This document shows positions 16,536 to 33,442 of a DNA stretch of 64,000 bases, piece by piece. The DNA comes from Syntrophales bacterium (GTDB lineage Bacteria > Desulfobacterota > Syntrophia > Syntrophales > PHBD01). Within the stretch, counting starts at the first letter, position 1; each line of letters opens with the position of its first letter. The notes under the pieces were generated by a model. That model was not told the DNA's origin. It ran no database searches and was given only the letters and a program-made list of their open reading frames with translations. The position numbers were made by a program, and so were the translations under genes. The stretch spans positions 1,676,077 to 1,740,076 of the forward strand of contig OY764159.1 of the NCBI GenBank assembly GCA_963668175.1, read 5' to 3'.

Positions 16536-17049
16536 CCTGGCACCTCCCGCTGTCTTTCGCTGGGGGCACGCGTTCCGTCTTGAACCGTTCGCGCCGTGTG
16601 CCGGCCCGGAAACCGATTCCCTCCGGGGCACCGCTTTCCGTGACCGCTCCCCCCCTGCACGGTACGGCGTCCTTCCCTGTTCCTTGAGTCTTGCGATGTT
16701 ACCAGTATAAGAAGGCCGTTTGAATATGTCAAATAAAACATAATATGTCAGGAACGAACGGACGAACGGATCGCCTGTGTCGAACGCCACGGCCGGCGAA
16801 ACAGGAAAAAGCTATAATTATTGAATATATACAATATAAGACCGGAAAGGCGCGTCCGGCTTTGTGTTGCGGGAATGAACGTTCGCTCATGTAGGAACTA
16901 CAGAGCTTATAGCGATTGATCTTTTATAAAATATTCAATATAATGCCGGAAAGTGGTTTCCCGCTTGAAAACGTGCCGGTAAGGCCCGGAAGAAAGCCTT
17001 GTGCGGTTTCGGCGGGAATCCTACGCGAAATAGATCAAGGAGGTTTTGG

Positions 17050-18735: not shown

Positions 18736-20820
18736 ATGAACAAGTCCCTTAAATGGTTTCTCATAGTCGCTTTCGGGTTCTGTCTCGGCATCCTGCCGCC
18801 TGCCGTCTGCCCGGCGATGCAGGCCTACGAGCTGGCTCAGAATCTCACCGGCACGGCGTCGGGTACGGTCATCTTCCTCCAGAATCTGTCGCCGTACTCA
18901 ATCAAGCTGACGGCGCACAATGTTTCCGATCCCGTGACGGCCAGTTCCCAGAGCACGGTCCTGGTACCCTTGGGCTTCCCGACGGCGCTGCCCGCGACAG
19001 TCTATCCCTCGTGTACGGCCGTGGCCTACACCTCGCCAATGGTTCCCATATTCGTCAACTTTCAGGACTATAATTCGCCGATCGTCAACCTGTTTCAGCT
19101 CGATTACCTGATCAGCCAGGTTACGGCCCTCGACAACCAGAATCGCCCCGTTACCGCCGACGTCCCGTTCCGTCTCTACATTTCCCATACGGTTCCCCCG
19201 GCGCCAGAACGGGGCAGCATGCATCTGCTCTGGAATCTGTTCAAGGAAGCCCTGTCCATCACCGATGTCGTTCTGGACCCGGAAAGCAAGATAGGGTGGA
19301 TCGCCCTGGCGGCCGACACCTACGATCTCATCGACGACGCCGCCTTCCCGGACGGCAACAAGAATACGGGTTCGCCGAGCAATCCGAACATCATTGCCGC
19401 CTATGCCGTCATGGACTTCACCAGGGAGACCCCCAGCGTCTTCACTACCGACGGGAGTCTCCAGAATACGGATGCCATCGCCACCCAGGCGGGAGGCATG
19501 TCCGCCCCGGCCAACGGCATTATCGTGACGGTTTCGACGGTCCGCGGCAAATGGGGAACGACCGGGGCCGACGTAGTGCCCTACACTTTCGTGACCATTT
19601 ACGACACCCCCCATTTCACGGCAGCCAGCCTCTCCCTGGCCATCAAGGATGCGACCAAGGCGGGGACGCTTACGGCCGATAACGCCACAGCCGGAATGGC
19701 GGTCCGCATGCAGAAGAGCGGCCGCGTGGCGATTATGGAGATCGCCAATGCGTTGAAAGGCTTTTCTCCCCAGCAGTATGCCGCCGTGAACAGCGCCATT
19801 GCGAAGATCAGGGGCGGAAAGGCGCTGGCGTCCGATGAAGCGGCGATCCTGAACGATCTGGGGGCCCGGGCTGACAAGCTGATCCTGGCCCGTGCGACCG
19901 ATTGCCCGTCGGGGGCTTGCACCATGCCCGACGGGACGTGCACGCAGACCAAGCAACTGGACTGCAAGGGCACTTATAAAGGCGACGGGACGACCTGTCC
20001 CACCGGGGCCTGTTTCAAGGACGCCAACACCTGCACCATACTGACGCAGGTGGCCTGCAAGGCGATCTCGGGGGCGACCTACAAGGGCGACAACACGTCC
20101 TGCCCCACCGGCGGCTGTTATTACCAGAGCACCCAGACCTGCGACACCGGCCTTACTCAGGACGCCTGTATCGCCAAGAACGGCAGCTATATGGGCAACT
20201 ATACGGACTGCGGCAAAGGCGCCTGTTACCTTCAGGATAACTGTTCGATTACGTACGGCGGCCTGTGCACGCCGCCCTCGATATATCACGGGACGGGTGC
20301 GGTCTGCGGCGCCGTCATGTCGGTTTCTCCCGTCTATCTCGGCGCCAAGAAAGACCCTTCCGCACAGTTAAGGGGACTCTCGGCCAATGTCCAAAATCCC
20401 TTTGCCGCCCTCACCTTTTCCAGTGAGGATTATCTCATGGCCAACTCTTGTACCGGCCCGATGCTGTCCTGCGGCTTCAGTGTCATGATGGACGCGACCA
20501 AGCCTCTCAAAACGGCCTTCACCGTGTCGGACGGAAAGAAGTCCTTCGATATCAAGGCCACCTGGGGCATGGATCTCCCCCAGACGTCGTTGACGGCGAA
20601 GTCTTCAAAGAAACAGTGCCAGTTCGCCGTTCCCGTCAACTACTCGTCCGGCTCCGTCCAGATCACGGGAGGCCCCGCAGTCGTTGCGAACACCTGCAAC
20701 GGTTCCCAGGGCGACTCCTGCCTGGTCACGCTCAAGACGTCCGTGGGAACGTCCACGGCTACCTTGACGGACCCGGTGACGGGGATCAGCGCCGCAGTGA
20801 GTCTGAACTGCCAGAAGTGA
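18736..20820 (+). CDS. secreted protein with tandem Cys-rich repeats
   Basis: signal peptide; four repeats of C..(T/S)G.C...C....C.G.YKGD.T.CPTG.C; no recognisable family. Confidence 0.65.
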   Translation: MNKSLKWFLIVAFGFCLGILPPAVCPAMQAYELAQNLTGTASGTVIFLQNLSPYSIKLTAHNVSDPVTASSQSTVLVPLGFPTALPATVYPSCTAVAYTSPMVPIFVNFQDYNSPIVNLFQLDYLISQVTALDNQNRPVTADVPFRLYISHTVPPAPERGSMHLLWNLFKEALSITDVVLDPESKIGWIALAADTYDLIDDAAFPDGNKNTGSPSNPNIIAAYAVMDFTRETPSVFTTDGSLQNTDAIATQAGGMSAPANGIIVTVSTVRGKWGTTGADVVPYTFVTIYDTPHFTAASLSLAIKDATKAGTLTADNATAGMAVRMQKSGRVAIMEIANALKGFSPQQYAAVNSAIAKIRGGKALASDEAAILNDLGARADKLILARATDCPSGACTMPDGTCTQTKQLDCKGTYKGDGTTCPTGACFKDANTCTILTQVACKAISGATYKGDNTSCPTGGCYYQSTQTCDTGLTQDACIAKNGSYMGNYTDCGKGACYLQDNCSITYGGLCTPPSIYHGTGAVCGAVMSVSPVYLGAKKDPSAQLRGLSANVQNPFAALTFSSEDYLMANSCTGPMLSCGFSVMMDATKPLKTAFTVSDGKKSFDIKATWGMDLPQTSLTAKSSKKQCQFAVPVNYSSGSVQITGGPAVVANTCNGSQGDSCLVTLKTSVGTSTATLTDPVTGISAAVSLNCQK

Positions 20821-20905
20821 CGCGGAATGCCGGCCTGCCGGCATCTTGACGCGGACAGCATTGTTCCGGATGCGTCCGGAAAAGGTTGAAAGAAAGGAAG
20901 AACGA

Positions 20906-22012
20906 ATGAAAAAAATCAAATGGCCGACCACGTTGCTTGCGCTTTTGCTGTTCTCTGTCCTGGCCGCGGCGGCGGAGGCCTGCTCCGTCGTTCGCGTTAT
21001 CGCCAAGGACGGAACCATCATCAGCGCCCGCACGATGGAATTCGGCATGGATATGAAGTACAACGCCATGGTCGTCCCGCGGGGCAAGGTTTTCGCCAGT
21101 CCCGCCCCCGGCAAGGGAACGGGGCTGAAATGGAAGACGCGCTACGGGTACGTTGCCGTCAATGCCTTGGGCGACGAGACAGTCGCCACGGACGGCATGA
21201 ACGAAGCGGGCCTGTCCATGAGCCATCTGTGGTATGAAAACGACATGGAATGGCAGACTGCGGGTTCGTCGGAAAAGGCGGAGGCCCTGGCCAACGCGAT
21301 GTTCGGCACGTGGATCCTCGGCAATTTCGCCACCGTCGACGAAGCGGCGAAGGCCCTGAAGAAGATCAAGGTCTTCAGCTACAAGGTGGCCGAGGCGGGC
21401 AACGTCTCATTCCCCGCCCACTTTATCATCAACGACGCCAAGGGCGGCTCCATCGTCATCGAGTACGACAAGGGCCAGCTCCACGTCTACGACAATCCCC
21501 TGGGGATTATGACCAACGCGCCGAACTTCCCCTGGATGGTCAACAACCTCCGCAATTACGTCGGCATGACCAACGACCAGCGCGGGGCTCAGGACTTCGG
21601 CGGCATGAAGCTTCCCGCCACTGGCCACGGCGCGGGGATGCTCGGCCTGCCGGGGGACATCACGCCCCCGAGCCGGTTCGTCCGTCTCGCCGTCCTGTCG
21701 AAGTTCGCCGATCCCCAGGAAACGGCCGAAGGGGCTTTGAACCTCGCCCAGCATCTCGTCAGCACGATCCATATCGTGAAGGGCACGATCGTGGACCGCG
21801 ACAAGGACGGCAAGATCGTCGCGAGCGAAACGACCCAGTGGTCGTCCTACCGGGACCTCACGAACCGCATCTTCTATTTCCGCACCTACGATAACTTCAA
21901 TATGCGGAAGATCGACCTGAAGCGGCTCGACTTCACCGGGCCCAAGGTCCGGCAGATCGAGATCGTCCAGGACCGGGAGGCGATTGCGGACGTCACCGAC
22001 CGTCTGAAATAA
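20906..22012 (+). CDS. choloylglycine hydrolase / penicillin V acylase family Ntn-hydrolase (secreted)
   Basis: signal peptide ending AEA followed by nucleophile Cys (CSVVRV...ARTMEF); GLPGDITPPSRF matches PVA motif GLPGDFTPSARF. Confidence 0.85.
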   Translation: MKKIKWPTTLLALLLFSVLAAAAEACSVVRVIAKDGTIISARTMEFGMDMKYNAMVVPRGKVFASPAPGKGTGLKWKTRYGYVAVNALGDETVATDGMNEAGLSMSHLWYENDMEWQTAGSSEKAEALANAMFGTWILGNFATVDEAAKALKKIKVFSYKVAEAGNVSFPAHFIINDAKGGSIVIEYDKGQLHVYDNPLGIMTNAPNFPWMVNNLRNYVGMTNDQRGAQDFGGMKLPATGHGAGMLGLPGDITPPSRFVRLAVLSKFADPQETAEGALNLAQHLVSTIHIVKGTIVDRDKDGKIVASETTQWSSYRDLTNRIFYFRTYDNFNMRKIDLKRLDFTGPKVRQIEIVQDREAIADVTDRLK

Positions 22013-22311
22013 TCACGCATTGCGACCGTCCCGCGGCTTTCCCGGCCGCGGGACGGTCGCGCTCTTCTTCCGTGGTTCCCTCTTCATGAAGCCGGCATGT
22101 GGGGCAAACGGTTCTTCTCCGGCCCCCTCCCGTCAGATAAAAGCTATCAATATCCCTCCATATAACCCCGATTGTCCGCCCCAGGCCCCGGGAGTAATTT
22201 ATAAAGCAGGAAGTCCTCCGCGGCGACGGGCTGCGAACCCGCAGGGTATGGGGATAACGGTTGCCTCCCGGAGCGCAGAGGGTGCACGGGAACGGACAAA
22301 GAGGAAAGGAA

Positions 22312-23523
22312 ATGAAACAGGGATACCGCACCACGGCCGTCGTCTGGATCGTTGCCCTGTCCCTTCTTGTGCCGATGCCCGTGCTCGCCCAACAACCGCC
22401 GGAAGATGCTGCGGCGCAAAAGTCCCACGTCTATTCCCAGGAAGAACTCGACCGGCTCCTCGCGCCTATCGCGCTCTATCCCGATACGCTGCTTTCGCAG
22501 ATTCTCATGGCGGCCACGTATCCCCTGGAGGTGGTCGAGGCCGACCGCTGGCTCAAGCAGAACAAGGGCCTGGGCGTCGACGCCCTCGATGCGGCCATGA
22601 TGTCGAAACCCTGGGACGTGAGCGTGAAGTCGCTGTGCCACTATCCGCAGGTGCTCGCCATGATGAGCGACAAGCTGGAACTGACGAACGACCTGGGCAA
22701 CGCCTTCCTCAATCAGCAGGAACAGGTGATGAATACCGTTCAGGATCTCCGCGCCAAGGCGCAGTCCCGCGGCAATCTCACGGCGACCGAGAAGCAGAAG
22801 GTCGCCTCCGAGGACGGGGCCATTACCATCGTCCCGGCAACCCCCGAGGTCGTCTACGTGCCGGCCTACGATCCCTGCTGGGTTTACGGGCCATGGTGGT
22901 ATCCCTCCTGCACGCCGTGGTGGTTCTGGTATCCGGGGATCGTGGTCGGCGCCGGGTTCTTCTTCGGTCCGCCCTGCTTTGTCGGCCCCCTCGATTTCTG
23001 GTGCGGTTTCCGCTGGCGGCGTCACGAAATATTCGTCAGTGTCAACAAGACGTTTGTCGTCCACAACCCTTCCTTCACCAGGATGCACGGCGGTACGGAG
23101 GTCTGGGTACACGATCCCGCGCACCGGCGCGGCGTGGCCTATACCCGGCCGGAAACCGCCCGCCGCTTTGGTCAGATGGTCCGTCCGGGTGTGGACGCCC
23201 GCCGGTCGTTCCGGGGATTCGCACCGGAAGGCATCCGGCCGGGGACACCCGCGGGTTCCGCGGCGCGGCCGTTTTCGCCGTCGCCGGGGATAGGAAAACC
23301 AGGCAGGCCGTTTTCGCAGCCGCAGGGTGTCTCTCCGGCTTTCAGGCCGTCTTCGCCGCAGGCCGGGCACGCTTTTGAGGGTTTCGGAGCGAGCCACGGG
23401 GAAGTCGTGCAGCACAGCGAGCGCGGGCACAGCAGTGTGGGAAGCAGCGGCGGCGGCCGCGTCGGGGGAGGCAGTATCGGCGGCCACGTCGGCGGCGGTC
23501 ACGTGGGGGGAGGCAGGCGATGA
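22312..23523 (+). CDS. DUF3300-family secreted protein
   Basis: signal peptide, conserved LLAPIALYPDTLLSQILMAATYP block, Gly/Arg-rich C-terminus. Confidence 0.7.
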   Translation: MKQGYRTTAVVWIVALSLLVPMPVLAQQPPEDAAAQKSHVYSQEELDRLLAPIALYPDTLLSQILMAATYPLEVVEADRWLKQNKGLGVDALDAAMMSKPWDVSVKSLCHYPQVLAMMSDKLELTNDLGNAFLNQQEQVMNTVQDLRAKAQSRGNLTATEKQKVASEDGAITIVPATPEVVYVPAYDPCWVYGPWWYPSCTPWWFWYPGIVVGAGFFFGPPCFVGPLDFWCGFRWRRHEIFVSVNKTFVVHNPSFTRMHGGTEVWVHDPAHRRGVAYTRPETARRFGQMVRPGVDARRSFRGFAPEGIRPGTPAGSAARPFSPSPGIGKPGRPFSQPQGVSPAFRPSSPQAGHAFEGFGASHGEVVQHSERGHSSVGSSGGGRVGGGSIGGHVGGGHVGGGRR

Positions 23524-23549
23524 CAGGGATATCGGGCAAAAGAAGGCCG

Positions 23550-24479
23550 ATGGCATTCGCTAGGCTGCTTTGCTGTGCGGCGGTTGCAGTCATGGCGATC
23601 CACGCAGCCCCGGGTGAAGGCCTGGCTGCGAAGGCCAGACAGCTCGCGTTCGACTCGCCCGAAGCGGCCTTCAATGCGATGATGCAGGCCATTCGGACCG
23701 GCGACGGCGGGCAGCTTAAGGCCCTGTTCGGCCCGGCCGGTAAAGACATCTTTCCCGCCGACCCGGAGGGGAGCGCCGCCCTGAGGAAGAAATTCGCCGC
23801 GGCCTACGACGAAAAATTCCGCCTGGAACGCCGGGGCGAGGACAAGGCGGTCCTGCACGTGGGCGACAACGACTGGCCCTGGCCCGTTCCCCTGGTCAAA
23901 GCCGGCAAACGCTGGCGGTTCGATACGGCGGAGGGCATCCGGGAAATCGTTGCGCGCCGGATCGGCAGGAACGAAATCTCCGCCATCCAGGTCTGCCTCG
24001 CCTATGTGGACGCGCAGCGGGAATACGCCGCAGAGCATCGCACCGGGGATATCGGCGAATATTCGCAGAAGCTCGCAAGCGACCCGGGCCTCAAGAACGG
24101 GCTCTGCTGGGAAACCAGGGAAGGGGAGAGGCCGAGCTTTCTCGGGCCGCTGCTCGTCGGGGCCTGCAAGACCGAAGCGACGGGAACGACCCCGCTTGTG
24201 ACGTCCTTCGCCCCCTATCACGGTTACTATTACAGGATCCTCAAGCGTCAAGGCCGGGCGGCGCCCGGAGGCGCCTACGGCTACGTCGTGGACGGGAAGA
24301 TGATCGGCGGATTTGCCCTCGTCGCGTATCCGGCCGTGTACGGCGCTTCGGGAATCATGACGTTCATCGTCGATAAGGACGGCGTCGTCTACCAGAAAGA
24401 CCTGGGCCGCTACACGGAGAAGCTTGCCGAGTCGATGGAGAGCTACAATCCCGACGCCACCTGGAAAAAAGTGGATTGA
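23550..24479 (+). CDS. DUF2950-family secreted protein
   Basis: signal peptide; typical partner of DUF3300; FALVAYPAVYGASGIMTFIV block. Confidence 0.65.
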   Translation: MAFARLLCCAAVAVMAIHAAPGEGLAAKARQLAFDSPEAAFNAMMQAIRTGDGGQLKALFGPAGKDIFPADPEGSAALRKKFAAAYDEKFRLERRGEDKAVLHVGDNDWPWPVPLVKAGKRWRFDTAEGIREIVARRIGRNEISAIQVCLAYVDAQREYAAEHRTGDIGEYSQKLASDPGLKNGLCWETREGERPSFLGPLLVGACKTEATGTTPLVTSFAPYHGYYYRILKRQGRAAPGGAYGYVVDGKMIGGFALVAYPAVYGASGIMTFIVDKDGVVYQKDLGRYTEKLAESMESYNPDATWKKVD

Positions 24480-24679
24480 CCATCGGGACCCGCCGGTTAT
24501 TCTTTTCCCGGTTCCCGGCTTCGCGCCGCCGGACCTTGCCGGAAAGAAATCCTGTCTGCAAAGGCCTTCCTGTGTTATAAGAAGAGAGTTGCGGCCGGCT
24601 GGGCCTCCACGGGCCGCAGCGGTTCTTCTCTGTCCTTGCGCATCGCGGATGCGGACGACATTCCCTGGAGGAAGGAGGA

Positions 24680-25624
24680 ATGAGCATGCTTCAATCCCCC
24701 TGGCTGCGGGCGGCCCGCCTGCAACTGCACACCATCGGTTTCGCCCCGCTTCTCCTCGGCAACGTCGCCGCCTGGTACGAGCAAGGTGTTTTCAGTTGGC
24801 CGCGGTTCATCCTTTCCCTGCTGATCGGGCTTTTCCTCCATATCATCACGGCGTTCGTCAACGACGTGGCGGATGTCGGCACCGACGGGGCCAACCTTTC
24901 CCGGACACCCTTTTCCGGAGGTTCGGGCGTCCTCGTCGAGGGACGGCTATCCCGTGCCGACCTGGCCGCGGGCGCGAGCGGACTGGCCTTCCTTTCTCTG
25001 GCCCTGACCTGGGTGCTGATCTTCGTCCTCCATGTCCATTGGGCGATCGCTCTCTTTGTCGGCTGGGGCCTGTTCTCCGCCGTAGAATACAGCCTCCCCC
25101 CCGTGAAGCTCGCCTACCGGGGAGGCGGCGAATTCCTGGTCCTCGTGACCTACAGCCTGGCGCTGGTATGGGCCGGATATTTCGTGCAGGCGGGCTTCGC
25201 CTATTCGCCCTTGATCTGGGTGTTTTCCGTTCCGATAGGTTTCGCCGTCTTCACGTTGATTACGGTAACGCAGTTTCCGGACCGGGAGGCCGATGCGAAG
25301 GCCGGCAAGCGGTCGCTCGTCATCCTCTTCGGCGAAAAAACGACCCTGCGCATCTGTGCGCTCGCCGTTATGCTCGGTATGGCCGGCATTGTCACGTCCT
25401 TCCTGACGGGTTTCGTTCCGGTCTGGGCGGGGGTGATGTCGCTCCTCGCTTTGCCCCTCACGTATCGCCTGGCGAAAACGATGCTTCGTCCCGACCTGGA
25501 CGGGACAGCCCTTTATATGAAGCTCAGCCGGGAGACCTTGCTCCTGACGCTCTGGTTCAGTCTGGCGCCGGCCGCCGGCCTGATCGTGCAGCGCTGGATG
25601 GGTTTTCAGGGGTTGTGTGGATGA
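24680..25624 (+). CDS. UbiA-family membrane prenyltransferase
   Basis: about 8 TM helices; first Asp-rich motif NDVADVGTDGAN, second D-rich region DREADAKAG. Confidence 0.75.
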   Translation: MSMLQSPWLRAARLQLHTIGFAPLLLGNVAAWYEQGVFSWPRFILSLLIGLFLHIITAFVNDVADVGTDGANLSRTPFSGGSGVLVEGRLSRADLAAGASGLAFLSLALTWVLIFVLHVHWAIALFVGWGLFSAVEYSLPPVKLAYRGGGEFLVLVTYSLALVWAGYFVQAGFAYSPLIWVFSVPIGFAVFTLITVTQFPDREADAKAGKRSLVILFGEKTTLRICALAVMLGMAGIVTSFLTGFVPVWAGVMSLLALPLTYRLAKTMLRPDLDGTALYMKLSRETLLLTLWFSLAPAAGLIVQRWMGFQGLCG

Positions 25625-25746
25625 ATGCCCGGTTCGGCCCGGTGACCTCCGCGCGGCATGTCGGGGGAGACCGGAATCCGGCGCTTCGGTGGTTCGTGTA
25701 AGGCAAAACTCCGTCGGGATGCGTCCGGGACGCATCGGGAAAAGGC

Positions 25747-27387
25747 ATGAGGACTTTCCGCATCATATTCGGTCTCATCGTCGATCTGGCCCTCTTCGGA
25801 ATGTTTGTTCCCTGGGCGACATTCCGGACGGGACATCTCCTCGACGGCCTCTTTCCGGTTTCCCTTCGTCCGGCTCTTCTTTTTGACGCCGCGGGCTGCG
25901 TGTTCGCCGCGGCGGGAGGGGCGTGGCTGCTCTGGTCGTGGTATCTCCTTGTCCGGGAAGGCCGCGGCTACATGACGGAGCTTTTCCGCATCGAGATTTC
26001 CCCCGTGACGGAGCGGCTCGTTGTCTCCGGGCCGTTTTCCCTCCACCGCCATCCCGTCTGCGCGGGCTACCTCTTCCTCCTCGCCGGCATCGGACTTGCG
26101 AAAGGCTCCTTCTGGTCGGCCGCCGGATGCGCGCCCCTGATTCTCGTCCTTGTTTCCGTCTATCTTCGCCTCTTCGAGGACCCGGGCCTCCGCCGGCGGT
26201 TCGCTGCGGAATACGACGATTATGCCCGACGGGTCCCCATGTTCTTTCCCGGCAGGCCCGGGCGCGTTTCCGTCGCCTACCGCAACCTCATCGCCGACCG
26301 GATACGCTTTGCCGTCACCGTCGCCGGGGTCGCCTTCGCGGTGCTCCTCATCTGCTTCCAGCTTTCGGTCCTCAAGGGAACGCGGAGCCAGATCACGACC
26401 TACATCGACCACGTCGGCGCGGACGTCTGGGTGATGCAGAAGGGCGTCGACGACTTCGTCGCAACATCCGCCGTTCCGAAAACGAGTGTCGATGCCGTGA
26501 AAAAGCTGAATGGCGTCCGGAAGGCGGAGGGTATTTACGCCGTTTATACCCTGATCGAAGTCAATAAGGTGAAGTCCCGGGTATACGTGATCGGCTACGA
26601 CACTGCCACGGGCGATGGCGGCCCGTGGAAGCTGGGAGAAACCCTGCCTCACATCGCCGGGGCGCGGTCGCTCAAAGACGGTGAAGTCCTCCTCGACCGT
26701 GACCTTGCCCGCCGCCATCATCTGAAAGTCGGCGACCGTGTCTCCCTCTTCGGCCAGACGTTCACCGTCGCCGGCTTCACGCTGGAGACGAACTCCATCG
26801 GGAGCCAGTACGCCTTCCTCTCCCGGGATTCCGTAGGCGGGATCATGCCGGGCGGCGGGTCCTTCTTCACCCATGTGCTCGTCTGGACGGACGGGACGGT
26901 TTCCGGCCCGGAGATGGTCCGGCGGATCGCTGCGGCCACGGGCCTCGGCTGCCTCGCGCGGGAGGTCCTCGACGACCACATGCGCGATTTTCTCGGAATG
27001 TTCATGCTGCCCCTGCTCACGGCGGGCGTCGTCATGGGATTCCTCGTCGGGTCCGTCACCATCGGTATTACCCTGTACACGGCCGTTCTGGAGCGGTTCA
27101 AAGAATACGGGACGATGAAGGCCCTGGGGGCGACGGACCGGTTTCTCTACGGCATCCTCCTGAGGCAGGCCCTTATCTCCCTGGGCTTGGGCACGGCCGT
27201 GGGCCTGGCGCTCGCGGCGGGTGCGGACCGTTTCATCAATCTCTGGGTCCCCGGCATGACGGCCGGCCTCGACAGGGACACGGTCCTGCAGACTGTCCTT
27301 GCGGGACTGCTCATGGCGGTCCTGAGCACAGGCCTCCCCATGTGGCGGCTTTACAGGTTGGACCCGATGGAGGCCTTCCGGTCATGA
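25747..27387 (+). CDS. fusion protein: ICMT/PEMT-like methyltransferase domain (N-terminal) plus MacB/FtsX-type ABC permease (C-terminal)
   Basis: residues 1-160: VSGPFSLHRHPVCAGYLF...EDPGLRRRFAAEYDDYARRVP (isoprenylcysteine carboxyl methyltransferase signature); from about residue 165: AYRNL...TM1, MacB-like periplasmic domain, three further C-terminal TM helices; no stop between the two parts. Confidence 0.7.
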   Translation: MRTFRIIFGLIVDLALFGMFVPWATFRTGHLLDGLFPVSLRPALLFDAAGCVFAAAGGAWLLWSWYLLVREGRGYMTELFRIEISPVTERLVVSGPFSLHRHPVCAGYLFLLAGIGLAKGSFWSAAGCAPLILVLVSVYLRLFEDPGLRRRFAAEYDDYARRVPMFFPGRPGRVSVAYRNLIADRIRFAVTVAGVAFAVLLICFQLSVLKGTRSQITTYIDHVGADVWVMQKGVDDFVATSAVPKTSVDAVKKLNGVRKAEGIYAVYTLIEVNKVKSRVYVIGYDTATGDGGPWKLGETLPHIAGARSLKDGEVLLDRDLARRHHLKVGDRVSLFGQTFTVAGFTLETNSIGSQYAFLSRDSVGGIMPGGGSFFTHVLVWTDGTVSGPEMVRRIAAATGLGCLAREVLDDHMRDFLGMFMLPLLTAGVVMGFLVGSVTIGITLYTAVLERFKEYGTMKALGATDRFLYGILLRQALISLGLGTAVGLALAAGADRFINLWVPGMTAGLDRDTVLQTVLAGLLMAVLSTGLPMWRLYRLDPMEAFRS

Positions 27388-28058
27388 CGCCAGTCATAGA
27401 AGCCCAGGACGTATCCCGGCGTTTCGGGCCGGGCGGCAACGAAGTCGTGGCGGTCGACAGCGTTTCCCTGCGCGTCGGCGCCGGGGAAATGGTCATGCTC
27501 ATGGGGCCGTCCGGGAGCGGCAAGACGACGCTCCTGGCGATGCTGGGCTGCATCCTCAGGCCTTCCTCGGGAAGCATCCGCATCATGGGGAAGGAGGCCG
27601 GCGGTCTATCTCCTGTCGAGCTGGCGCGGCTTCGGGCGCAGGCCATCGGCTTCGTCTTCCAGGGGTTCAATCTCCTGGCCGCCTTGACGGCGATGGAAAA
27701 CGTCGTCCTGGCCGGCGAGTTCGTCTCTCCGCGCCCCCGCGATATAAGGAAACGCGCCGAGGCCGTCCTCGTGCAGATGGGGCTCGGCCGCCGCCTCCAT
27801 CACCTGCCGGAGCATCTTTCCGCCGGGGAGAAGCAGCGCGTGGCCTTCGCCCGGGCGCTCATCAACGGCCCCGGGATCGTCCTTGCCGACGAGCCGACGG
27901 CGAATCTCGACGCGGAGAACCGCGACCTGGTCGTGAGCCTCCTTTTGACCGCCGCCAGGGAACGGAACGTCGCCGTCGTCATCGCGACCCACGACGACCG
28001 CATCGAACACATCGCCGACCGTGTCATCCGCATGGGCGACGGTAAGATCGTTCCATAA
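27384..28058 (+). CDS. ABC transporter ATP-binding protein (MacB/LolD-type)
   Basis: Walker A GPSGSGKTT, signature LSAGEKQRVAFARAL, Walker B VLADEPT; ATGA overlap with permease stop. Confidence 0.9.
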   Translation: MTPVIEAQDVSRRFGPGGNEVVAVDSVSLRVGAGEMVMLMGPSGSGKTTLLAMLGCILRPSSGSIRIMGKEAGGLSPVELARLRAQAIGFVFQGFNLLAALTAMENVVLAGEFVSPRPRDIRKRAEAVLVQMGLGRRLHHLPEHLSAGEKQRVAFARALINGPGIVLADEPTANLDAENRDLVVSLLLTAARERNVAVVIATHDDRIEHIADRVIRMGDGKIVP

Positions 28059-28356
28059 TGCCTCATTCGCTTGTTTAATGTCCCGATGCGCCCTCGTCCC
28101 CCTCTTTCGTCAATGAGACATCTTCATGAGGATTCCCGGAGTGCCGATCGCGCGCCTTCGCCGATCGGTATCGTAAGCCCCGCCTGACAGCGTTCCCATA
28201 ACTCAATACCGCCGGTTTTTTCTTGGCCGAATCTTCCTCTGTTCCGCGGAACGTCGCCGGCTGCGGGATAGCTGGGCGTGGCGAAGAGAGGAGATAGGGC
28301 AAAGAAAGGTTGACAAAACCGGCCGGAGGGCCCTAGATAGGTCCACGGAAAAAGCG

Positions 28357-28941
28357 ATGCGCTGGAATAATCTTTCGACATACAAGCGGGAGGCTTGGGT
28401 GGCGCTGGCCTTTGCGCTCCTCATCGCCGCCACGGTGTTTCAGCTTCACGAACAGGGGAGGGGTTTCTGGTGCGCCTGCGGGCAGCCTTACCTGTGGGAG
28501 GGCGACATCTGGAGCGCCCACACCTCGCAGCATCTCTTCGACCCGTACAGCTTCACGCACATCCTGCACGGCGTCCTGCTCTGCGGTCTTCTGACGTTGG
28601 CGTTTCCGAAGGTTCCGCTTCCGTGGCGCATCTTCATGGCGGCGGTCATCGAATGCGTCTGGGAAATCGTCGAGAACAGCCCGTATATTATCCACCGCTA
28701 CCGTACCGTCACCATCGGCCTCGGCTACGAGGGGGATTCCATCGCCAATTCCTTAAGCGACATCTCGTGCTGCCTCCTGGGGTTCTACCTGGCCTACCGC
28801 CTGGGCCTCAAACGCTCCATCGTCTTGTTCGTCGTGATTGAGGTTGTGCTCCTCTTCTGGATCAGGGACAACCTGACCCTGAACGTCCTGATGCTCACCT
28901 GGCCCATCGACGCCGTCAAACAGTGGCAGATGATCCGTTGA
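28357..28941 (+). CDS. DUF2585-family membrane protein
   Basis: 194 aa, 4-5 TM helices; TTGACA-17-TAGATA promoter at about 28310-28345. Confidence 0.6.
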   Translation: MRWNNLSTYKREAWVALAFALLIAATVFQLHEQGRGFWCACGQPYLWEGDIWSAHTSQHLFDPYSFTHILHGVLLCGLLTLAFPKVPLPWRIFMAAVIECVWEIVENSPYIIHRYRTVTIGLGYEGDSIANSLSDISCCLLGFYLAYRLGLKRSIVLFVVIEVVLLFWIRDNLTLNVLMLTWPIDAVKQWQMIR

Positions 28942-29040: not shown

Positions 29041-29258
29041 GGGGAGCCGTGAAGGCCGTTCCCGGATCCCATACATGACGGAGACGTTGCCCGGCCGTGG
29101 CTAAGTGATTTGGGGTGAAAACGAATTTGTCTTCATCTCACTTTTTTCCCATATGTGACGGGTTGCTGTCCCCGGGCATCCTCTCCCCATCCTTTTGTTG
29201 CTTTACACCTGTTTATGTTTTACCGTAGATCATCTTAGATCGACAAGAGGAGCAGGAA

Positions 29259-29783
29259 TTGACTCTTTCCGATATCCGTCTTCCCCGGGAACTGGAGGCG
29301 GATGGCAGCGCCGCCGCCATCCGCCGCGCATTATCGTCCCGGACGACGATGATTCGGCCCGGGGGCACGCAGGAAGTTCCCTTGATTGCGATGAGTGCAT
29401 CCTTGGAACAGGCGCTGGTGAGGTCCCGGTCCAAAGGGCAGATCCTTTACGGGTTCGAAGCCATCCGGGAAAGGCTGGCTTCCGAGAAAAAGGGGATCAT
29501 GAATGTACTGGAACAAGGCTCCGCGCCATACGGCAATCGCATCTCCAGGTTGATCCTCTTTTCCGACGACGGCGCCGGGCGCCTCTACCGGCATATCGAG
29601 CAGCTCCTGCTGGATCACAGCCCCAGAATCCTGGGCTGTCTCCTGGATATCGACAGCGGCGTTCTCGGCAGTCTGATTATCGGAAAAGACAGGCCGATCA
29701 AAGTCGTGCTGGCGGAGCACAAAGAGGCGGTGTCCGAACTGCTGCGGGCGATGATCGCCGGACCTGCGCAAACCGATCCATAA
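29259..29783 (+). CDS. hypothetical protein (TTG start with strong AAGAGGAG RBS)
   Basis: 174 aa ORF in the rearranged island; no recognisable family. Confidence 0.4.
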   Translation: MTLSDIRLPRELEADGSAAAIRRALSSRTTMIRPGGTQEVPLIAMSASLEQALVRSRSKGQILYGFEAIRERLASEKKGIMNVLEQGSAPYGNRISRLILFSDDGAGRLYRHIEQLLLDHSPRILGCLLDIDSGVLGSLIIGKDRPIKVVLAEHKEAVSELLRAMIAGPAQTDP

Positions 29784-29949
29784 GGAAATCTCCCTGCCAC
29801 GATTACTGCAAACCGAAGTTACTCCTGGCGTGTACCACGAACGGCAGCATTATTATATTATCCACACCGTCCAATCTCTCGAATCCGATTAGCGGGAACA
29901 AGAAAATAAACCAGTTCTCCATTCCCCGATTTTGCCGGGACGGAACCGG

Positions 29950-30012
29950 GTCAGACATCCTGATGACGGCCATGGCCCATCGAGGCCGTCAAACAGTGGC
30001 AGATGATTCATT
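29950..30012 (+). pseudogene. degenerate duplicate of the 3-prime end of the DUF2585 gene
   Basis: GGCCCATCGAGGCCGTCAAACAGTGGCAGATGATTCATTGA versus 28900-28941 GGCCCATCGACGCCGTCAAACAGTGGCAGATGATCCGTTGA. Confidence 0.5.
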
Positions 30013-30044
30013 GAGAGATACCGTTAGAAAACCGGTGCGAGTCC

Positions 30045-30845
30045 TCAATTCTTTGCCTTGCCTTTTTTCACATATTTAAACTGACAGATGTTTATGCTGC
30101 CAAATGCAGATCCTTCACGCACTGAGAATCCTCTATATATCTTGAGTATCCCCGGAAACGAATCCCAACCGAACATGTATGCCTGCCCTTTATACAGCAT
30201 TATCTCAGCACCGTAAGAAGCATTAATGGAACCCAGTATATCATTATATCGCCAATCTAGACGAGTATCCGATTTTATTACACCATACAAATCTTTCCAT
30301 CCTGCTTCGTTACATGATCGCTGATTTAACAATACAACCTGTTCAGTACGGCCATCGTAATCAATATCAATCGTTGCGATCTGTAGTTTGATTCGACCGT
30401 CAGTAAGATCGGTCTTGTAACCTGGCTCAATTATCTTCCATTGCCCAACGCGATACTTTTCTCCCCGGCCACTCAAAGCCATGTCCTCAATCAGTCCCCA
30501 ATGGGCTTTGGGATCAATCAAACTCCATGCGAGCTTCTTAAACTGCTTTTCCCCAGGCGGCAGAGTCCAGTTGCAAATCAGTTTATCAGGAGATTCACAG
30601 GTTCTGTTCAATACCTTTTCAAAATCGACACACACGGGCAATTCGCTCCTTTCCCACACTTCCGCGCGCCTGCCATTCCCCAGAGATGTTGTCCGATCTA
30701 CCCATGAGATGCGTTTCCAGCATTTCTGCGTCTTTTTAATTTTTTTCTCGATAGCCGTTGCATCCTGTTTTTCGGCCGCCATCAGTGATGGACCCGTTAA
30801 ACAGAACACCAAGACAATCGCGGATAGAATCAATTTTCGCGACAT
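30045..30845 (-). CDS. secreted hypothetical protein encoded in an AT-rich (about 42% GC) segment
   Basis: signal peptide MSRKLILSAIVLVFCL; codon usage unlike neighbours; no family recognised. Confidence 0.55.
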   Translation of the reverse strand: MSRKLILSAIVLVFCLTGPSLMAAEKQDATAIEKKIKKTQKCWKRISWVDRTTSLGNGRRAEVWERSELPVCVDFEKVLNRTCESPDKLICNWTLPPGEKQFKKLAWSLIDPKAHWGLIEDMALSGRGEKYRVGQWKIIEPGYKTDLTDGRIKLQIATIDIDYDGRTEQVVLLNQRSCNEAGWKDLYGVIKSDTRLDWRYNDILGSINASYGAEIMLYKGQAYMFGWDSFPGILKIYRGFSVREGSAFGSINICQFKYVKKGKAKN

Positions 30846-30955
30846 ATCGCTTAACCTCTCACGGTCTGCTGTCCGGATAGACCATGGCCCGATCTTGCGT
30901 CGGGCCATGGCCGTTCAATCGTTTTCCAAGCTTCACATTTCCGAAACAGACAGCA

Positions 30956-33046
30956 TCAGGTCTTTGCTGCCGCATCCGGCGCCGAGGCCGGTGCAGCCGC
31001 GGCGTCCTTCTTCGTGATGAGGCTGGTGAGATAGGCGGAAAGCAGGCCGCCGATGCCGTCGCCGCCCTGGACCAGGAAGTCCGGCGTGACCTTGACGTTG
31101 CCCGCGGCGATCTGCTTGGAGATTTCGATGGCCGTGACGCCCTGCTGTCCCACCGCCTTGTTCTGCAGTTCGTAGGCCTTCGCCGTGGCCTCGCCGATGG
31201 CGAGTATCTTGGAACCCTCGGCGTCGCCCTTCGCCTTGATACCCTTCGCCTCGCCCTCGGCCCGGAGCCTGATGCTCTCCGCCTCGCCTTCGGCGAAGCG
31301 GATCGCCTTCTGCTTGTTCTGCTCGGCGATCTTGACGCCGATCTCCGCTTCCACGAGGTTCTTCTGCTGGTCGGCCTCGGAGCGCGTCTTCTCGGTGGCG
31401 ATGCGAGTCTGCTCCGCCTTCTGCTGTTCCTGGTACATCGCCTGCTGCTGCTGGGCGATGATCTTCATCGTCTGTGTGTCCATGAGGTCCTGGGGCAGCT
31501 TGATCTGGCAGATGAGGACGGAGACGCATTCCACATGGTATTTCTCAAGCTCCGTGCGGGCCCGCTCTTCGGCTTTCCGCTGCTCGTCCTGGCGGTCCTG
31601 CATGAAGTTCATGGCGGACGTGGACGAGGCCTGGTTGCGGAAGCTCGAATCGATCATCGGGTGGATGACGTGGCGGATCAGGTTGTCGATGGAGCCGATC
31701 TTGGCGACCATGTAGGGCGCCTGGTCGGGGCGGACGCGGATGATGACCTTGACGGCGACGCTGATCTCGAAGCCGTCGCGGGAGATGACCTTCAGGGGAT
31801 CGAAGTTCGTCTCCTTGGCGTCGTCCCAGTCGATGGTGATGTTCGTCGTATCGACGATGTAGGCGATGAACGCCCGGCGGTTCAGGTAATAGATGCCGGG
31901 GCCGGCCACCTCCTGCTGGATGCCGCGGAAGCCCTTGGGCACGACGTAGCGCTCGATGCCGGTGTCCAGCCTTTTTTCGATCAGTTCGACCGGCGGCACG
32001 CCCGTGTCCGCCTGGATCTCCTTCCTGGCCGTTTCCGCGACGATCTGCTTCACCTGTTCGGGCTCTTCGCCCACGTTCGAGATGACGACGGCGACCTGGC
32101 CGCGCTCCACGGTGGCTACGTCGTCAAGCTCCAGCTGGAACATGAGGGTATTGACGTAGTACGTGCCCGGCTTGAGGACGTCGAACTGGGGGCCGCGCTG
32201 GCCGCCCGCCCCCAGGAACTTCGAGGCGTCCTGGTAATCGTTGTGCCCCGGGACGGACTTCGCCACGTATTCGGTCTCCGGCAGGGGCTCGCCGTCCAGC
32301 GACGTCACCAGCCCGACCTTGCCGGACGGGACCACCGTGGCCTCCCTGACCTCCGCGTGGAAGAGGTCGGTGTTGATGCGGTAAGTGCCGGGCAGCAGAA
32401 TTTCGATCTGCGGCCCCTTCTGGCCGTGGTTGCGGAGGAACATCTGGCCGTTTTCGAAGTTCGAGTGGCCTTCCGCCTTGTGGGCGAGAAGCCGGCCGAC
32501 GGAGATCGGCTCGCCGTCCATCGCCGTGACCATGCCGATCTTGCCCTTGTCGATCACGATGCAGGGGACCTTGCGGATTTTGAACAGGAAGGGGTTGATG
32601 CGGTAGTTCCCCGGCGGGAGGATTTCGATCTGGGGGCCCTTCTCCCCGCCGTTGTGGAGGAAGGCCTCGCCGTCCTGAAACGAATCGTGACCGGAGACTA
32701 CCTTGGCGAAGATCTTTCCCGGAGGAATGGCGTCCCCGTCGATGGATTCGATGATGCCGACCTGGTCCTCGGTGATGACGGTGAAGGGCACCTTCGTCGC
32801 TTTGTAAAGGAAGGGGATCAGGAGGTGAAGCCCCGGCCCCAGGGTCCTCGCCTGGACGCCGACCTCGTCCGCCATGGCGACGACGCGGCCGCTGGGCATC
32901 TTCTTGCCGAACCAGCGCCGTTCGAGAACGGCGATCTGCGTGCCCCCGACGTTGACGATCATGTTAGTCAGGATGATGAGAAAGAGGATGAACCCGACGG
33001 CGTAGAGGGCGACCATGCCCGGGTGCTGAAAGATGTAATCGATCAT
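30956..33046 (-). CDS. flotillin-like SPFH/band-7 protein
   Basis: N-terminal TM, repeated SPFH beta segments, long Glu/Ala/Lys-rich coiled coil (flotillin C-terminus). Confidence 0.85.
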   Translation of the reverse strand: MIDYIFQHPGMVALYAVGFILFLIILTNMIVNVGGTQIAVLERRWFGKKMPSGRVVAMADEVGVQARTLGPGLHLLIPFLYKATKVPFTVITEDQVGIIESIDGDAIPPGKIFAKVVSGHDSFQDGEAFLHNGGEKGPQIEILPPGNYRINPFLFKIRKVPCIVIDKGKIGMVTAMDGEPISVGRLLAHKAEGHSNFENGQMFLRNHGQKGPQIEILLPGTYRINTDLFHAEVREATVVPSGKVGLVTSLDGEPLPETEYVAKSVPGHNDYQDASKFLGAGGQRGPQFDVLKPGTYYVNTLMFQLELDDVATVERGQVAVVISNVGEEPEQVKQIVAETARKEIQADTGVPPVELIEKRLDTGIERYVVPKGFRGIQQEVAGPGIYYLNRRAFIAYIVDTTNITIDWDDAKETNFDPLKVISRDGFEISVAVKVIIRVRPDQAPYMVAKIGSIDNLIRHVIHPMIDSSFRNQASSTSAMNFMQDRQDEQRKAEERARTELEKYHVECVSVLICQIKLPQDLMDTQTMKIIAQQQQAMYQEQQKAEQTRIATEKTRSEADQQKNLVEAEIGVKIAEQNKQKAIRFAEGEAESIRLRAEGEAKGIKAKGDAEGSKILAIGEATAKAYELQNKAVGQQGVTAIEISKQIAAGNVKVTPDFLVQGGDGIGGLLSAYLTSLITKKDAAAAPASAPDAAAKT

Positions 33047-33442
33047 GTTTTTGGTCCTTTCTTCTTGTTCTGGGGTTGATCTTGTTTTTTAGCTTCCTGT
33101 AACCGCTGTTCCGGAGGCCGGACCATTTTCGCCGGCGCATCCCGGCACATGTGTCCGTATACGCGGGAAGCCCGGAACAGGGACGATTTTTGCCAATTCT
33201 CGCCTCTTTTATACTAAAGAATAAGATATTATGCTAATATTTATTTTAGACAGAATCACTATTTTGTAAATAGCTGGGTATTGTAGAGGATAATACACAA
33301 AACGATGGGGCGCGTTTCACGCGAGACGAGGCAAAGGAAAATGGTGGCGTGGGGTGGCTCCGTGATGCGGCCGGGGTGATGCACAGATAAAGCGTTTGCA
33401 GGGAATGAAACCTGAGATTATCGGTGAACGGCCGGTCGCGGC

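Follow-up and report, generated by a model that had tools for sequence, protein, structure and literature searches.

Methyltransferases of the isoprenylcysteine carboxyl methyltransferase (ICMT) family are very numerous in bacteria, and in the literature searched only RhlM (2024) has an assigned substrate. ATP-binding cassette (ABC) transporters of type VII, in turn, are only now coming to be seen as proteins that extract hydrophobic molecules in cooperation with enzymes modifying lipids (YbbAP-TesA, 2025). Here, we describe a cassette of three genes on 64,000 nucleotides of DNA from a Syntrophales bacterium (contig OY764159.1, positions 1,676,077 to 1,740,076; referred to as the window). The cassette occupies positions 24680–28058 on the plus strand and encodes a UbiA-superfamily membrane prenyltransferase, a protein in which a predicted ICMT-fold methyltransferase domain is fused to a type VII ABC permease, and an ABC ATPase.

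Several described systems resemble parts of this cassette. RhlM of Paraburkholderia is an ICMT-family enzyme that methyl-esterifies a secreted rhamnolipid glycolipid (PMC11069360). It shares the ICMT fold of a bacterial integral membrane protein and the conserved His and Glu residues contacting S-adenosylmethionine (SAM), methylates the carboxylate of a cytoplasmic-leaflet amphiphile bound for secretion, and is encoded inside a biosynthetic operon. However, RhlM is a stand-alone protein without a covalent link to a transporter, and its substrate is an acyl glycolipid, not an isoprenoid. The family survey in the same study left out proteins longer than 330 aa (PMC11069360). On the transporter side, the Escherichia coli type VII transporter YbbAP forms a complex with the lipid hydrolase TesA (PMC12646458), and this structure (9ge6) matches the permease part of the fusion. 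TesA is a soluble periplasmic esterase that binds the periplasmic domain non-covalently and acts after extraction, whereas the cassette enzyme is intramembrane, fused to the cytoplasmic N-terminus, and would act before extraction. YbbP also has a duplicated architecture with 8–10 transmembrane (TM) helices, unlike the fusion permease. HrtBA, LolCDE, and DevBCA are closer in this respect, as they share the order of TM1, periplasmic core domain, and TM2–4, a separate ATPase, and membrane-embedded hydrophobic cargo, but none of them bears an enzyme domain; unlike DevBCA and LolCDE, the cassette contains no gene for a DevB/MacA adaptor or a LolA-like partner.

Three further pathways share the logic of the cassette rather than its proteins. 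Maturation of the yeast a-factor comprises farnesylation by Ram1/Ram2, proteolysis by Ste24/Rce1, methylation by the ICMT Ste14, and export by the ABC transporter Ste6 (PMC2134810). The likeness lies in the order of prenylation, ICMT-type methylation, and ABC-dependent export of a hydrophobic product; the a-factor differs in being a ribosomal peptide, in its soluble alpha/beta prenyltransferase in place of a UbiA-family enzyme, in the other ABC fold of its exporter, and in having parts that are neither linked nor fused. Menaquinone biosynthesis (MenA/UBIAD1, then MenG/UbiE) likewise couples UbiA-family prenylation of an aromatic carboxylic acid to SAM-dependent methylation. However, the methyltransferase of the cassette has an ICMT fold instead of a class I fold, there is no linkage to further men genes, scores stay below the equivalog cutoffs, and the canonical menaquinone pathway does without an ABC transporter. 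Finally, the conserved ebo operon of cyanobacteria and other bacteria, which includes the UbiA-family protein EboC, has been implicated in the movement of metabolites from the cytoplasm to the periplasm (PMC6282210); its partners are EboA, EboB, EboE, and EboF, with no methyltransferase and no ABC transporter. A methyltransferase–permease fusion beside a UbiA gene was not described in the full-text literature searched, which agrees with an initial interpretation of the window made from its sequence alone (the sequence-only reading) that no such bacterial system is on record.

Organization of the Cassette and Authenticity of the Fusion

The UbiA gene, the methyltransferase–permease fusion gene, and the ATPase gene form a self-contained operon (Table 1). 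Pfam searches bore out the sequence-only reading of a UbiA enzyme, an ICMT/PEMT-like domain in frame with a complete MacB-type permease, and a cognate ATPase. The ATG of the ATPase gene at 27384 overlaps the TGA of the fusion gene at 27385–27387 as ATGA, just as that reading had proposed, and the ATPase is translationally coupled to the permease through this overlap. The same 4-bp overlap is present in the called-gene tables of six further loci (L001–L005 and L025). An overlap does not exist at the other boundary, where UbiA and fusion genes lie 122 bp apart. This spacer contains the GGGAAAAGG ribosome-binding site of the fusion gene, which is abutted by a 7-bp hairpin (GATGCGT-ccggg-ACGCATC, 25718–25736). 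As the spacer varies between 9 and 157 bp among loci, the hairpin is not conserved, and the spacer holds no conserved element or peptide gene. No riboswitch or other RNA element was matched by Rfam between positions 23000 and 30500. A scan for promoters and terminators across 24300–28500 returned counts not above those of shuffled sequence, and the boundaries of the transcription unit can therefore not be deduced from them.

Table 1. Positions of the cassette features, of the genes upstream, and of genes adjoining the cassette elsewhere (coordinates refer to the window, or to the locus named).
Feature	Position	Strand	Remarks
UbiA-superfamily membrane prenyltransferase	24680-25624	+	314 aa; Pfam UbiA E=1e-25
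Spacer between UbiA and fusion genes	25625-25746	+	122 bp, intergenic; read directly from the sequence
Fusion gene, whole	25747-27387	+	546 aa; single open frame
Fusion, N-terminal domain (aa 1-175)	25747-26271	+	Predicted four-helix ICMT/PEMT-fold (class VI) membrane methyltransferase
Fusion, C-terminal part (aa 176-546)	26272-27387	+	Complete type VII (MacB/FtsX) ABC permease
Periplasmic core domain, MacB_PCD (aa 189-394)	26311-26928	+	Pfam
FtsX, TM2-4 (aa 428-540)	27028-27366	+	Pfam
ABC ATPase	27384-28058	+	224 aa; ABC_tran E=1e-29
CBAH-family Ntn hydrolase	20846-22012	+	
DUF3300 protein	22261-23523	+	
DUF2950 protein	23520-24479	+	4-bp overlap with DUF3300 gene
Polyprenyl-diphosphate synthase, other loci	L001:12496-13533; L002:7907-8701 (-); L003:10282-11316; L011:3-713; L018:1-474; L020:2-214		
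Retropepsin-like protease, other loci	L001:8305-8913; L004:10503-11135 (-); L016:2695-3303		

A search of 5.8 billion proteins yielded about 45 clusters with 58–95% identity to the fusion, nearly all of them about 547 aa long and bearing PF04191, PF12704, and PF02687. They were drawn from ENA, JGI, NCBI, and Logan assemblies, and names, where given, refer to Syntrophales, Smithella, or Deltaproteobacteria. The fusion junction is conserved in a 24-sequence alignment (RVPMFFPxxRxRIPVAFRNLxADRIRF). A frameshift or read-through artifact, the alternative raised in the sequence-only reading, is excluded, as these clusters and another 20 loci, drawn from four data sources, keep one and the same frame, and the linker is conserved as well. 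Fragmented copies in some ENA assemblies (L002, L012, L027, and P0089–P0092) look like assembly indel errors. One 177-aa protein consisting of the N-terminal domain only (P0279, 54% identity) ends exactly at the fusion junction and lies on a 111-kb contig that also bears a UbiA gene (P0203); this protein may stem from a gene that is truly split or from a frameshift introduced in assembly.

The distribution of the fusion is narrow. Two peptide patterns retrieved it from at least 7 of 185,579 GTDB species representatives, and all seven carriers are metagenome-assembled genomes labeled Syntrophales, Syntrophaceae, or "delta proteobacterium". When 1.84 billion representatives at 50% identity were searched exhaustively with phmmer, a single full-length fused cluster (P0008) was retrieved in addition to fragments. 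Outside the fusion clade, identity drops to 42%, and the UbiA clade described below shows the same narrow distribution. The nearest unfused permease (P0054, L026) has neither a UbiA nor a methyltransferase gene nearby.

Conservation of the Gene Neighborhood

Neighborhoods of 20 further loci were compared by tblastn and by clustering of open reading frames (ORFs). In all 18 loci with enough upstream DNA, the gene directly upstream of the fusion encodes a UbiA of this clade, and the ATPase gene lies directly downstream in all 19 loci with downstream DNA. The neighborhood is thus conserved in relatives, a point on which the sequence-only reading could have been refuted. Across loci, the three genes co-vary in their identity to the window copy, both UbiA versus fusion (r = 0.89) and fusion versus ATPase (r = 0.90), while the outer flanks of the cassette differ from locus to locus. 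A trans-polyprenyl-diphosphate synthase gene (PF00348) adjoins the cassette in six loci, i.e., about a third, in three different positions and orientations, and marks the pathway as isoprenoid. Its first aspartate-rich motif stands in the context AASLLHDDFVDQD, with small residues at −4 and −5 from the first DDxxD, and the second motif reads QIADD. Small residues ahead of the first DDxxD, a region involved in chain-length determination, would argue against a strictly short-chain product. Within the 64-kb window, tblastn (E ≤ 1e-5) detected no polyprenyl synthase.

A retropepsin-like aspartic protease gene (clan AA, TIGR02281-like) was observed beside the cassette in three loci; its three copies are 35–37% identical to each other, compared to about 65–70% identity of the respective cassette proteins to the window copy. 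Clustering of ORFs of at least 60 aa and of 20–100 aa revealed no conserved precursor-peptide gene and gave only shadow ORFs or ORFs of near-identical contigs. Likewise, neither a CaaX-type soluble prenyltransferase nor an Rce1/Ste24 protease was found at the cassette loci. Substrates may be encoded outside these loci.

The N-Terminal Methyltransferase Domain

The N-terminal domain of the fusion matches PEMT (PF04191) at aa 50–153 with 31.1 bits (gathering score 25), and PF04191 is also the only precomputed Pfam domain for the methyltransferase part of the fusion clade, PF04140 (ICMT) being absent. The window protein itself gave no match to PF04140 at E ≤ 0.01. Comparison of the family profile of the domain with PDB sequences pointed to Ma-ICMT (4a2n, 1e-4) and to Tc-ICMT from Tribolium (5vg9, 3.5e-4), and ICMT is the closest solved fold. 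An AlphaFold2 (AF2) model of aa 1–180 adopts this fold with a predicted local distance difference test (pLDDT) score of 89. The ICMT/PEMT-like nature of the domain, as read initially from the sequence, is thus upheld by hidden Markov models, profile comparison, and predicted fold; judged by its sequence, the domain is best filed under the ICMT/PEMT class and not as an isoprenylcysteine methyltransferase.

The sequence-only reading had also recognized an ICMT signature in the window copy. This applies well to the family consensus, HRHPvCvGY ... FEEPxLxxRFGxxYxxYxxxVP, which is closer to the canonical signature than the window copy (HRHPVC..GY, FEDP, and RFAAEY); the latter agrees only approximately because of RHPVC, ED, and FA. 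The Tyr of RHPxY is replaced by Cys, Ser, or Gly in the fusion clade. Nine residues are invariant in the 24-sequence alignment of the clade (H100, R101, H102, P103, E144, L148, R151, Y156, and Y159), and four of them (R101, P103, E144, and Y159) stay invariant when stand-alone ICMT relatives, with at most 39% identity to the domain, are added. In RhlM, Ma-ICMT, and Tc-ICMT, a His and a Glu residue are reported to contact SAM (PMC11069360); their counterparts in the alignment are H102 and E144 of the fusion. With this cofactor motif intact, the domain is a putative SAM-dependent methyltransferase. Four TM helices result from both hydropathy and the AF2 model, and the loops at aa 63–103 and 144–187 are rich in K/R. 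The prediction places both ends of the domain and its cofactor loops on the cytoplasmic side, and the C-terminus of the domain would therefore meet the cytoplasmic N-terminus of permease TM1, which makes the topology consistent.

Permease and ATPase

The permease part matches MacB_PCD (52.7 bits, 9e-14) and FtsX (52.6 bits, 6e-14) in Pfam and is arranged in the order of amphipathic N-helix, TM1, periplasmic core domain, and TM2–4. According to the AF2 model and hydropathy, four TM helices surround a beta-rich domain of 190 aa; the model of the full-length fusion reached a pLDDT of 85.6. In Foldseek, the best target-normalized TM-scores were obtained for the heme extractor HrtBA (7w7a, 0.78) and for a Streptococcus pneumoniae structure (5xu1, 0.68), followed by LolCDE, MacB, YtrEF, YbbAP, and BceAB; the probability was 1.0 for MacB, LolC/E, HrtB, and YbbP. 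Residues 174–546 of the fusion are the part to which stand-alone permeases, about 368 aa in length, align, and the methyltransferase is therefore joined exactly at the canonical cytoplasmic N-terminus of the permease.

The ATPase (ABC_tran, 104 bits) contains in its translation the Walker A motif GPSGSGKT, the signature LSAGEKQR, the Walker B motif IVLADEPT, and the H-loop ATHD. In NCBIfam, DevA, LolD, and MacB are the families nearest to it. For permease and ATPase, the best families are DevC and DevA of the heterocyst glycolipid exporter, with scores below the cutoffs (64.3 versus 290.35 bits for DevC and 222.2 versus 295.8 bits for DevA), and no DevB-like gene was seen. Even larger gaps were found for LolCDE (LolC/E model TIGR02212, 32.2 bits versus a cutoff of 362.45) and for MacAB-TolC (MacB model, 20.5 versus 966 bits). 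Genes for an HlyD/MacA membrane-fusion protein or an outer-membrane duct were absent from the called-gene loci and from the scanned neighbors in the window. The "extrusion pump" of the sequence-only reading is thus too narrow a term for the module. As a type VII ABC system without an adaptor, the module is likened to the extractor members LolCDE, HrtBA, and YbbAP and not to a tripartite pump.

The UbiA Prenyltransferase

The prenyltransferase matches Pfam PF01040 with 90.8 bits (gathering score 34.2), covering profile positions 3–247 of 250. Both Asp-rich motifs for binding of Mg2+ and diphosphate are present, N61-D62-xx-D65-xxx-D69 and D201-xxx-D205, and the six named residues are invariant in the clade and in outgroups. 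Invariant motifs of the clade are NDxxDxxxDxxN, FSGGS, YRGGGE, and PDxxxD, of which FSGGS and YRGGGE are the clade's own. The source annotation probably begins at the second Met (24686), as P0149 is 312 aa long. The best NCBIfam models are those for MenA, followed by chlorophyll synthase; however, neither MenA (NF004751, 91.2 bits versus a cutoff of 264; TIGR00751, 51.9 versus 102) nor chlorophyll/bacteriochlorophyll synthase (TIGR01476, 54.3 versus 212.3) reached its cutoff. Compared with PDB sequences, the family profile retrieved chlorophyll synthase (1e-10, the best match), UBIAD1 (4e-9), and also DGGGP synthase. About 80 clusters share 50–100% identity with the enzyme, followed by an abrupt fall to 39% or less. 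By these sequence comparisons, it belongs to a distinct clade that appears nearest to MenA, UBIAD1, and chlorophyll synthase.

Among the nearest outgroup UbiAs, which are about 37–38% identical, an arrangement of UbiA, hypothetical protein, and UbiA is common to Sorangium sp. So ce406 (L014:6314-9675) and a Pseudomonadota metagenome-assembled genome (L015:6316-8894); a gene with a Lycopene_cyc domain follows in Sorangium only. This arrangement appears to be a cassette of its own and gives no hint of the acceptor. A divergent cassette (L025:7001-8347, Logan SRR22388059) encodes a UbiA of 448 aa in total with an N-terminal PNPOx_N domain (an FMN-binding split barrel), followed by the same PEMT–MacB fusion and ATPase; multiheme cytochrome genes flank this locus. 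The PNPOx-like domain was rejected as a part of the cassette, because it is a single case and has no homolog near other cassettes.

A Second Methyltransferase–Permease Fusion

Among permeases outside the clade, P0272 has the smallest pairwise distance (42% identity); this protein of 610 aa is encoded outside the window on an 8.9-kb contig (JGI/Logan). It consists of an N-terminal class I Rossmann SAM methyltransferase, a Pro/Ala-rich linker, MacB_PCD, and FtsX. The methyltransferase matches Methyltransf_11 (1e-26) and Ubie_methyltran (1.7e-19) in Pfam and occupies the same N-terminal position as the ICMT-fold domain, to which its fold is unrelated. In a neighbor-joining tree, the fusion clade was monophyletic in 100 of 100 bootstrap replicates, and P0272 fell into its sister group in 60 of 100. 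Two unrelated methyltransferase folds at the same place in related permeases speak for a functional tie between methylation and this transporter lineage. We therefore argue, from these sequences, that methylation has probably been wired recurrently to this lineage of permeases.

Genes Surrounding the Cassette in the Window

The sequence-only reading had pointed to the DUF3300/DUF2950 pair and an Ntn hydrolase immediately upstream of the cassette. Their position is as described (Table 1), but membership in the system finds no counterpart in synteny elsewhere: neither these three genes nor a DUF2585 gene recur beside the cassette in other loci, and all four were rejected as parts of the module. 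The row of CBAH hydrolase, DUF3300, and DUF2950 genes is likely a separate operon, unrelated to the cassette by synteny. Further upstream, a 573-aa protein of WG_beta_rep repeats is encoded at 16999–18720 (+; six matched stretches, E = 8e-73), followed by an ORF of 694 aa without a Pfam match (18736–20820, +). Downstream of the cassette, the GC content falls to 0.47–0.49 between positions 29500 and 31000, compared to 0.58–0.67 around, and this segment may be foreign DNA. Two ORFs, 29195–30079 (+) and 30045–30908 (−), have no Pfam match, and the first has no NCBIfam match either. Around a 731-aa ORF (30884–33079, +), also without a Pfam match, the AT skew is strongly negative, as it is at the membrane-protein genes of the cassette.

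Discussion

We tentatively propose that the operon builds an amphiphilic membrane compound, which is prenylated and methylated, and clears it from the inner membrane, a reading to which we give slightly less than an even chance. It builds on the domain identities, predicted folds, motifs, and predicted topology, on the linkage and co-inheritance of the three genes, and on the parallel of P0272. From these, we infer the order of steps, the type of acceptor and of methylation, a direct transfer between enzyme and permease, and the direction in which the product moves, as follows. A trans-polyprenyl diphosphate would be provided by the dedicated synthase where present, and otherwise by the cell pool. 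UbiA would then move the prenyl chain onto an acceptor, probably a carboxyl-bearing or aromatic one, at the cytoplasmic face. The ICMT-fold domain would take up the lipid laterally from the bilayer and methylate it with SAM; by analogy to ICMT and RhlM, a carboxyl methyl ester would be the most likely product, with the head group neutralized. Finally, permease and ATPase would extract the neutral lipid by ATP-driven mechanotransmission and deliver it to the periplasm, the outer membrane, or the medium, behaving like LolCDE, HrtBA, or YbbAP and not like a tripartite pump.

We favor this mechanism because of the strict linkage of the UbiA and fusion genes, the co-variation of their identities, and the same narrow distribution of both clades. 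Furthermore, the operon has a complete permease and a complete ATPase, both of which match extractors of lipids or hydrophobic ligands from the type VII class. The polyprenyl synthase adjacent to some cassettes, the consistent topology, the P0272 parallel, and the precedent of RhlM add to this.

Several points weigh against the mechanism. The main difficulty is topology: the active site of the ICMT-fold domain is predicted to be cytoplasmic, whereas characterized type VII systems take up their substrates from the periplasmic side or the outer leaflet, and the mechanism therefore demands a putative flip of the neutral lipid after its methylation. In addition, no conserved gene supplies the acceptor. 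An adjacent polyprenyl synthase is lacking for the window copy and for more than half of the loci, and the motif of the window copy departs from the canonical one (ED for EE, FA for FG, and Cys for Tyr in RHPxY). AF2 gave no usable packing between the domains, which makes direct channeling a conjecture. The PDB matches also included AtTam46, which has an ICMT fold and belongs to the Ycf2-FtsHi motor complex as a subunit; by analogy, an ICMT fold may play a structural part within an ATPase machine. Lastly, the evidence base consists throughout of metagenome assemblies of uncultured organisms.

Methylation could further act as an "export license", in that the ICMT-fold domain would neutralize a prenylated carboxylate in the bilayer and hand it laterally to the fused extractor. 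We regard this idea as doubtful, though worth stating for what would follow from it (see below).

A quinone-type redox lipid would be a specific sub-case of the proposed mechanism, with a respiratory cofactor as the product instead of a secreted metabolite. A MenA-like UbiA would prenylate a naphthoate or benzoate, the methyltransferase would act on the prenylquinone or a carboxylated intermediate, and the ABC module would deliver the redox lipid to the outer leaflet, the periplasm, or the outer membrane, e.g., for extracytoplasmic electron transfer in syntrophs. MenA as the best NCBIfam match of UbiA, UBIAD1 among its PDB profile matches, and the multiheme cytochrome genes flanking L025 would fit this picture, as would the methyltransferase of P0272, which matches the UbiE/COQ5 family of Pfam (1.7e-19) and reaches 70–80 bits with the MenG and MpqE models. 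However, these scores are far under the curated cutoffs (91 versus 264 for MenA and 70–80 versus 158–420 for MenG/UbiE), and the P0272 methyltransferase scores just as high with arsenite methyltransferases and further generic enzymes of class I. The cassette occurs in only 7 GTDB species and is thus not the core quinone pathway of the order. To our knowledge, known quinone methylations are carried out by class I enzymes and not by ICMT-fold enzymes, and we consider a quinone-type product unlikely.

Lower still we place a role in envelope maintenance or resistance without a secreted product. Here, the type VII part would sense, protect, or extract, similar to BceAB, FtsEX, or YbbAP, while methyltransferase and UbiA would modify a polyprenyl-phosphate carrier, a phospholipid (PEMT-like), or a lipid A phosphate (LmtA-like) under stress. 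The Pfam match of the domain is indeed to the phospholipid methyltransferase family, BceAB and YbbAP are among the structural matches, and type VII systems often act via mechanotransmission and not transport (PMC5985334). The N-terminal domain also shows a weak similarity to LmtA, the lipid A 1-phosphate methyltransferase of Leptospira (E = 0.003–0.005), but at 17 bits versus a cutoff of 325. Moreover, no conserved two-component system or periplasmic partner enzyme lies beside the cassette, and the dedicated UbiA and, in some loci, the dedicated polyprenyl synthase point to biosynthesis of a specific compound, which makes an envelope role improbable.

The sequence-only reading had compared the cassette to eukaryotic CaaX processing. 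In such an analog of the a-factor pathway, a peptide or protein encoded elsewhere would be prenylated, trimmed at its C-terminus, carboxyl-methylated by the ICMT-like domain, and exported. We know of no UbiA-family enzyme that prenylates protein cysteines; acceptors of the family are small aromatic compounds, tetrapyrroles, lipids, or sugar phosphates. The analogy can draw on ICMT as the closest solved fold, on the retropepsin-like protease beside the cassette in L001, L004, and L016, and on the same three-step logic by which the a-factor is prenylated, methylated by Ste14, and exported by Ste6 (PMC2134810). Nevertheless, literal CaaX protein processing finds no support: the cassette lacks a CaaX-type alpha/beta prenyltransferase gene, a CaaX protease, and a conserved small ORF or precursor, and the retropepsin-like protease is found in only three of about 14 loci with usable flanks, at differing positions and with copies of only 35–37% identity. 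The window protein furthermore matches PEMT and not PF04140 in Pfam, and the characterized bacterial family member RhlM acts on a glycolipid; we consider a peptide substrate very unlikely. Equally remote is a non-catalytic scaffold, a lipid-binding adaptor, or an NADPH-dependent enzyme resembling polyprenyl or steroid reductases in place of the methyltransferase, since the profile matches ICMT and PEMT and not Steroid_dh, the cofactor His/Glu and RHP ... EE..L..(F/L)G..Y..Y are conserved in the clade and in stand-alone ICMT relatives, and the parallel fusion P0272 bears a bona fide SAM-binding class I methyltransferase.

The components of the cassette each belong to known families, and the joining of a processing enzyme to its exporter is an already known idea. 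Practical reach is limited by the narrow spread in uncultured Syntrophales. Nonetheless, a fusion locked to a dedicated UbiA is a clue of the Rosetta-stone type as to which enzyme feeds which transporter. If methylation did act as an export license, this would be the first enzyme–transporter fusion of this ABC class and a bacterial counterpart of the a-factor logic of prenyl group, methyl ester, and ABC export. It would also imply that syntrophic bacteria secrete an isoprenoid not known before, be it a signal, a surfactant, or a redox shuttle, and attachments of the P0272 type would mark a broader, unrecognized class of methylation-coupled lipid exporters. The cassette predicts a new methylated isoprenoid product and offers a compact system of three or four genes for the coupling of biosynthesis and extraction.

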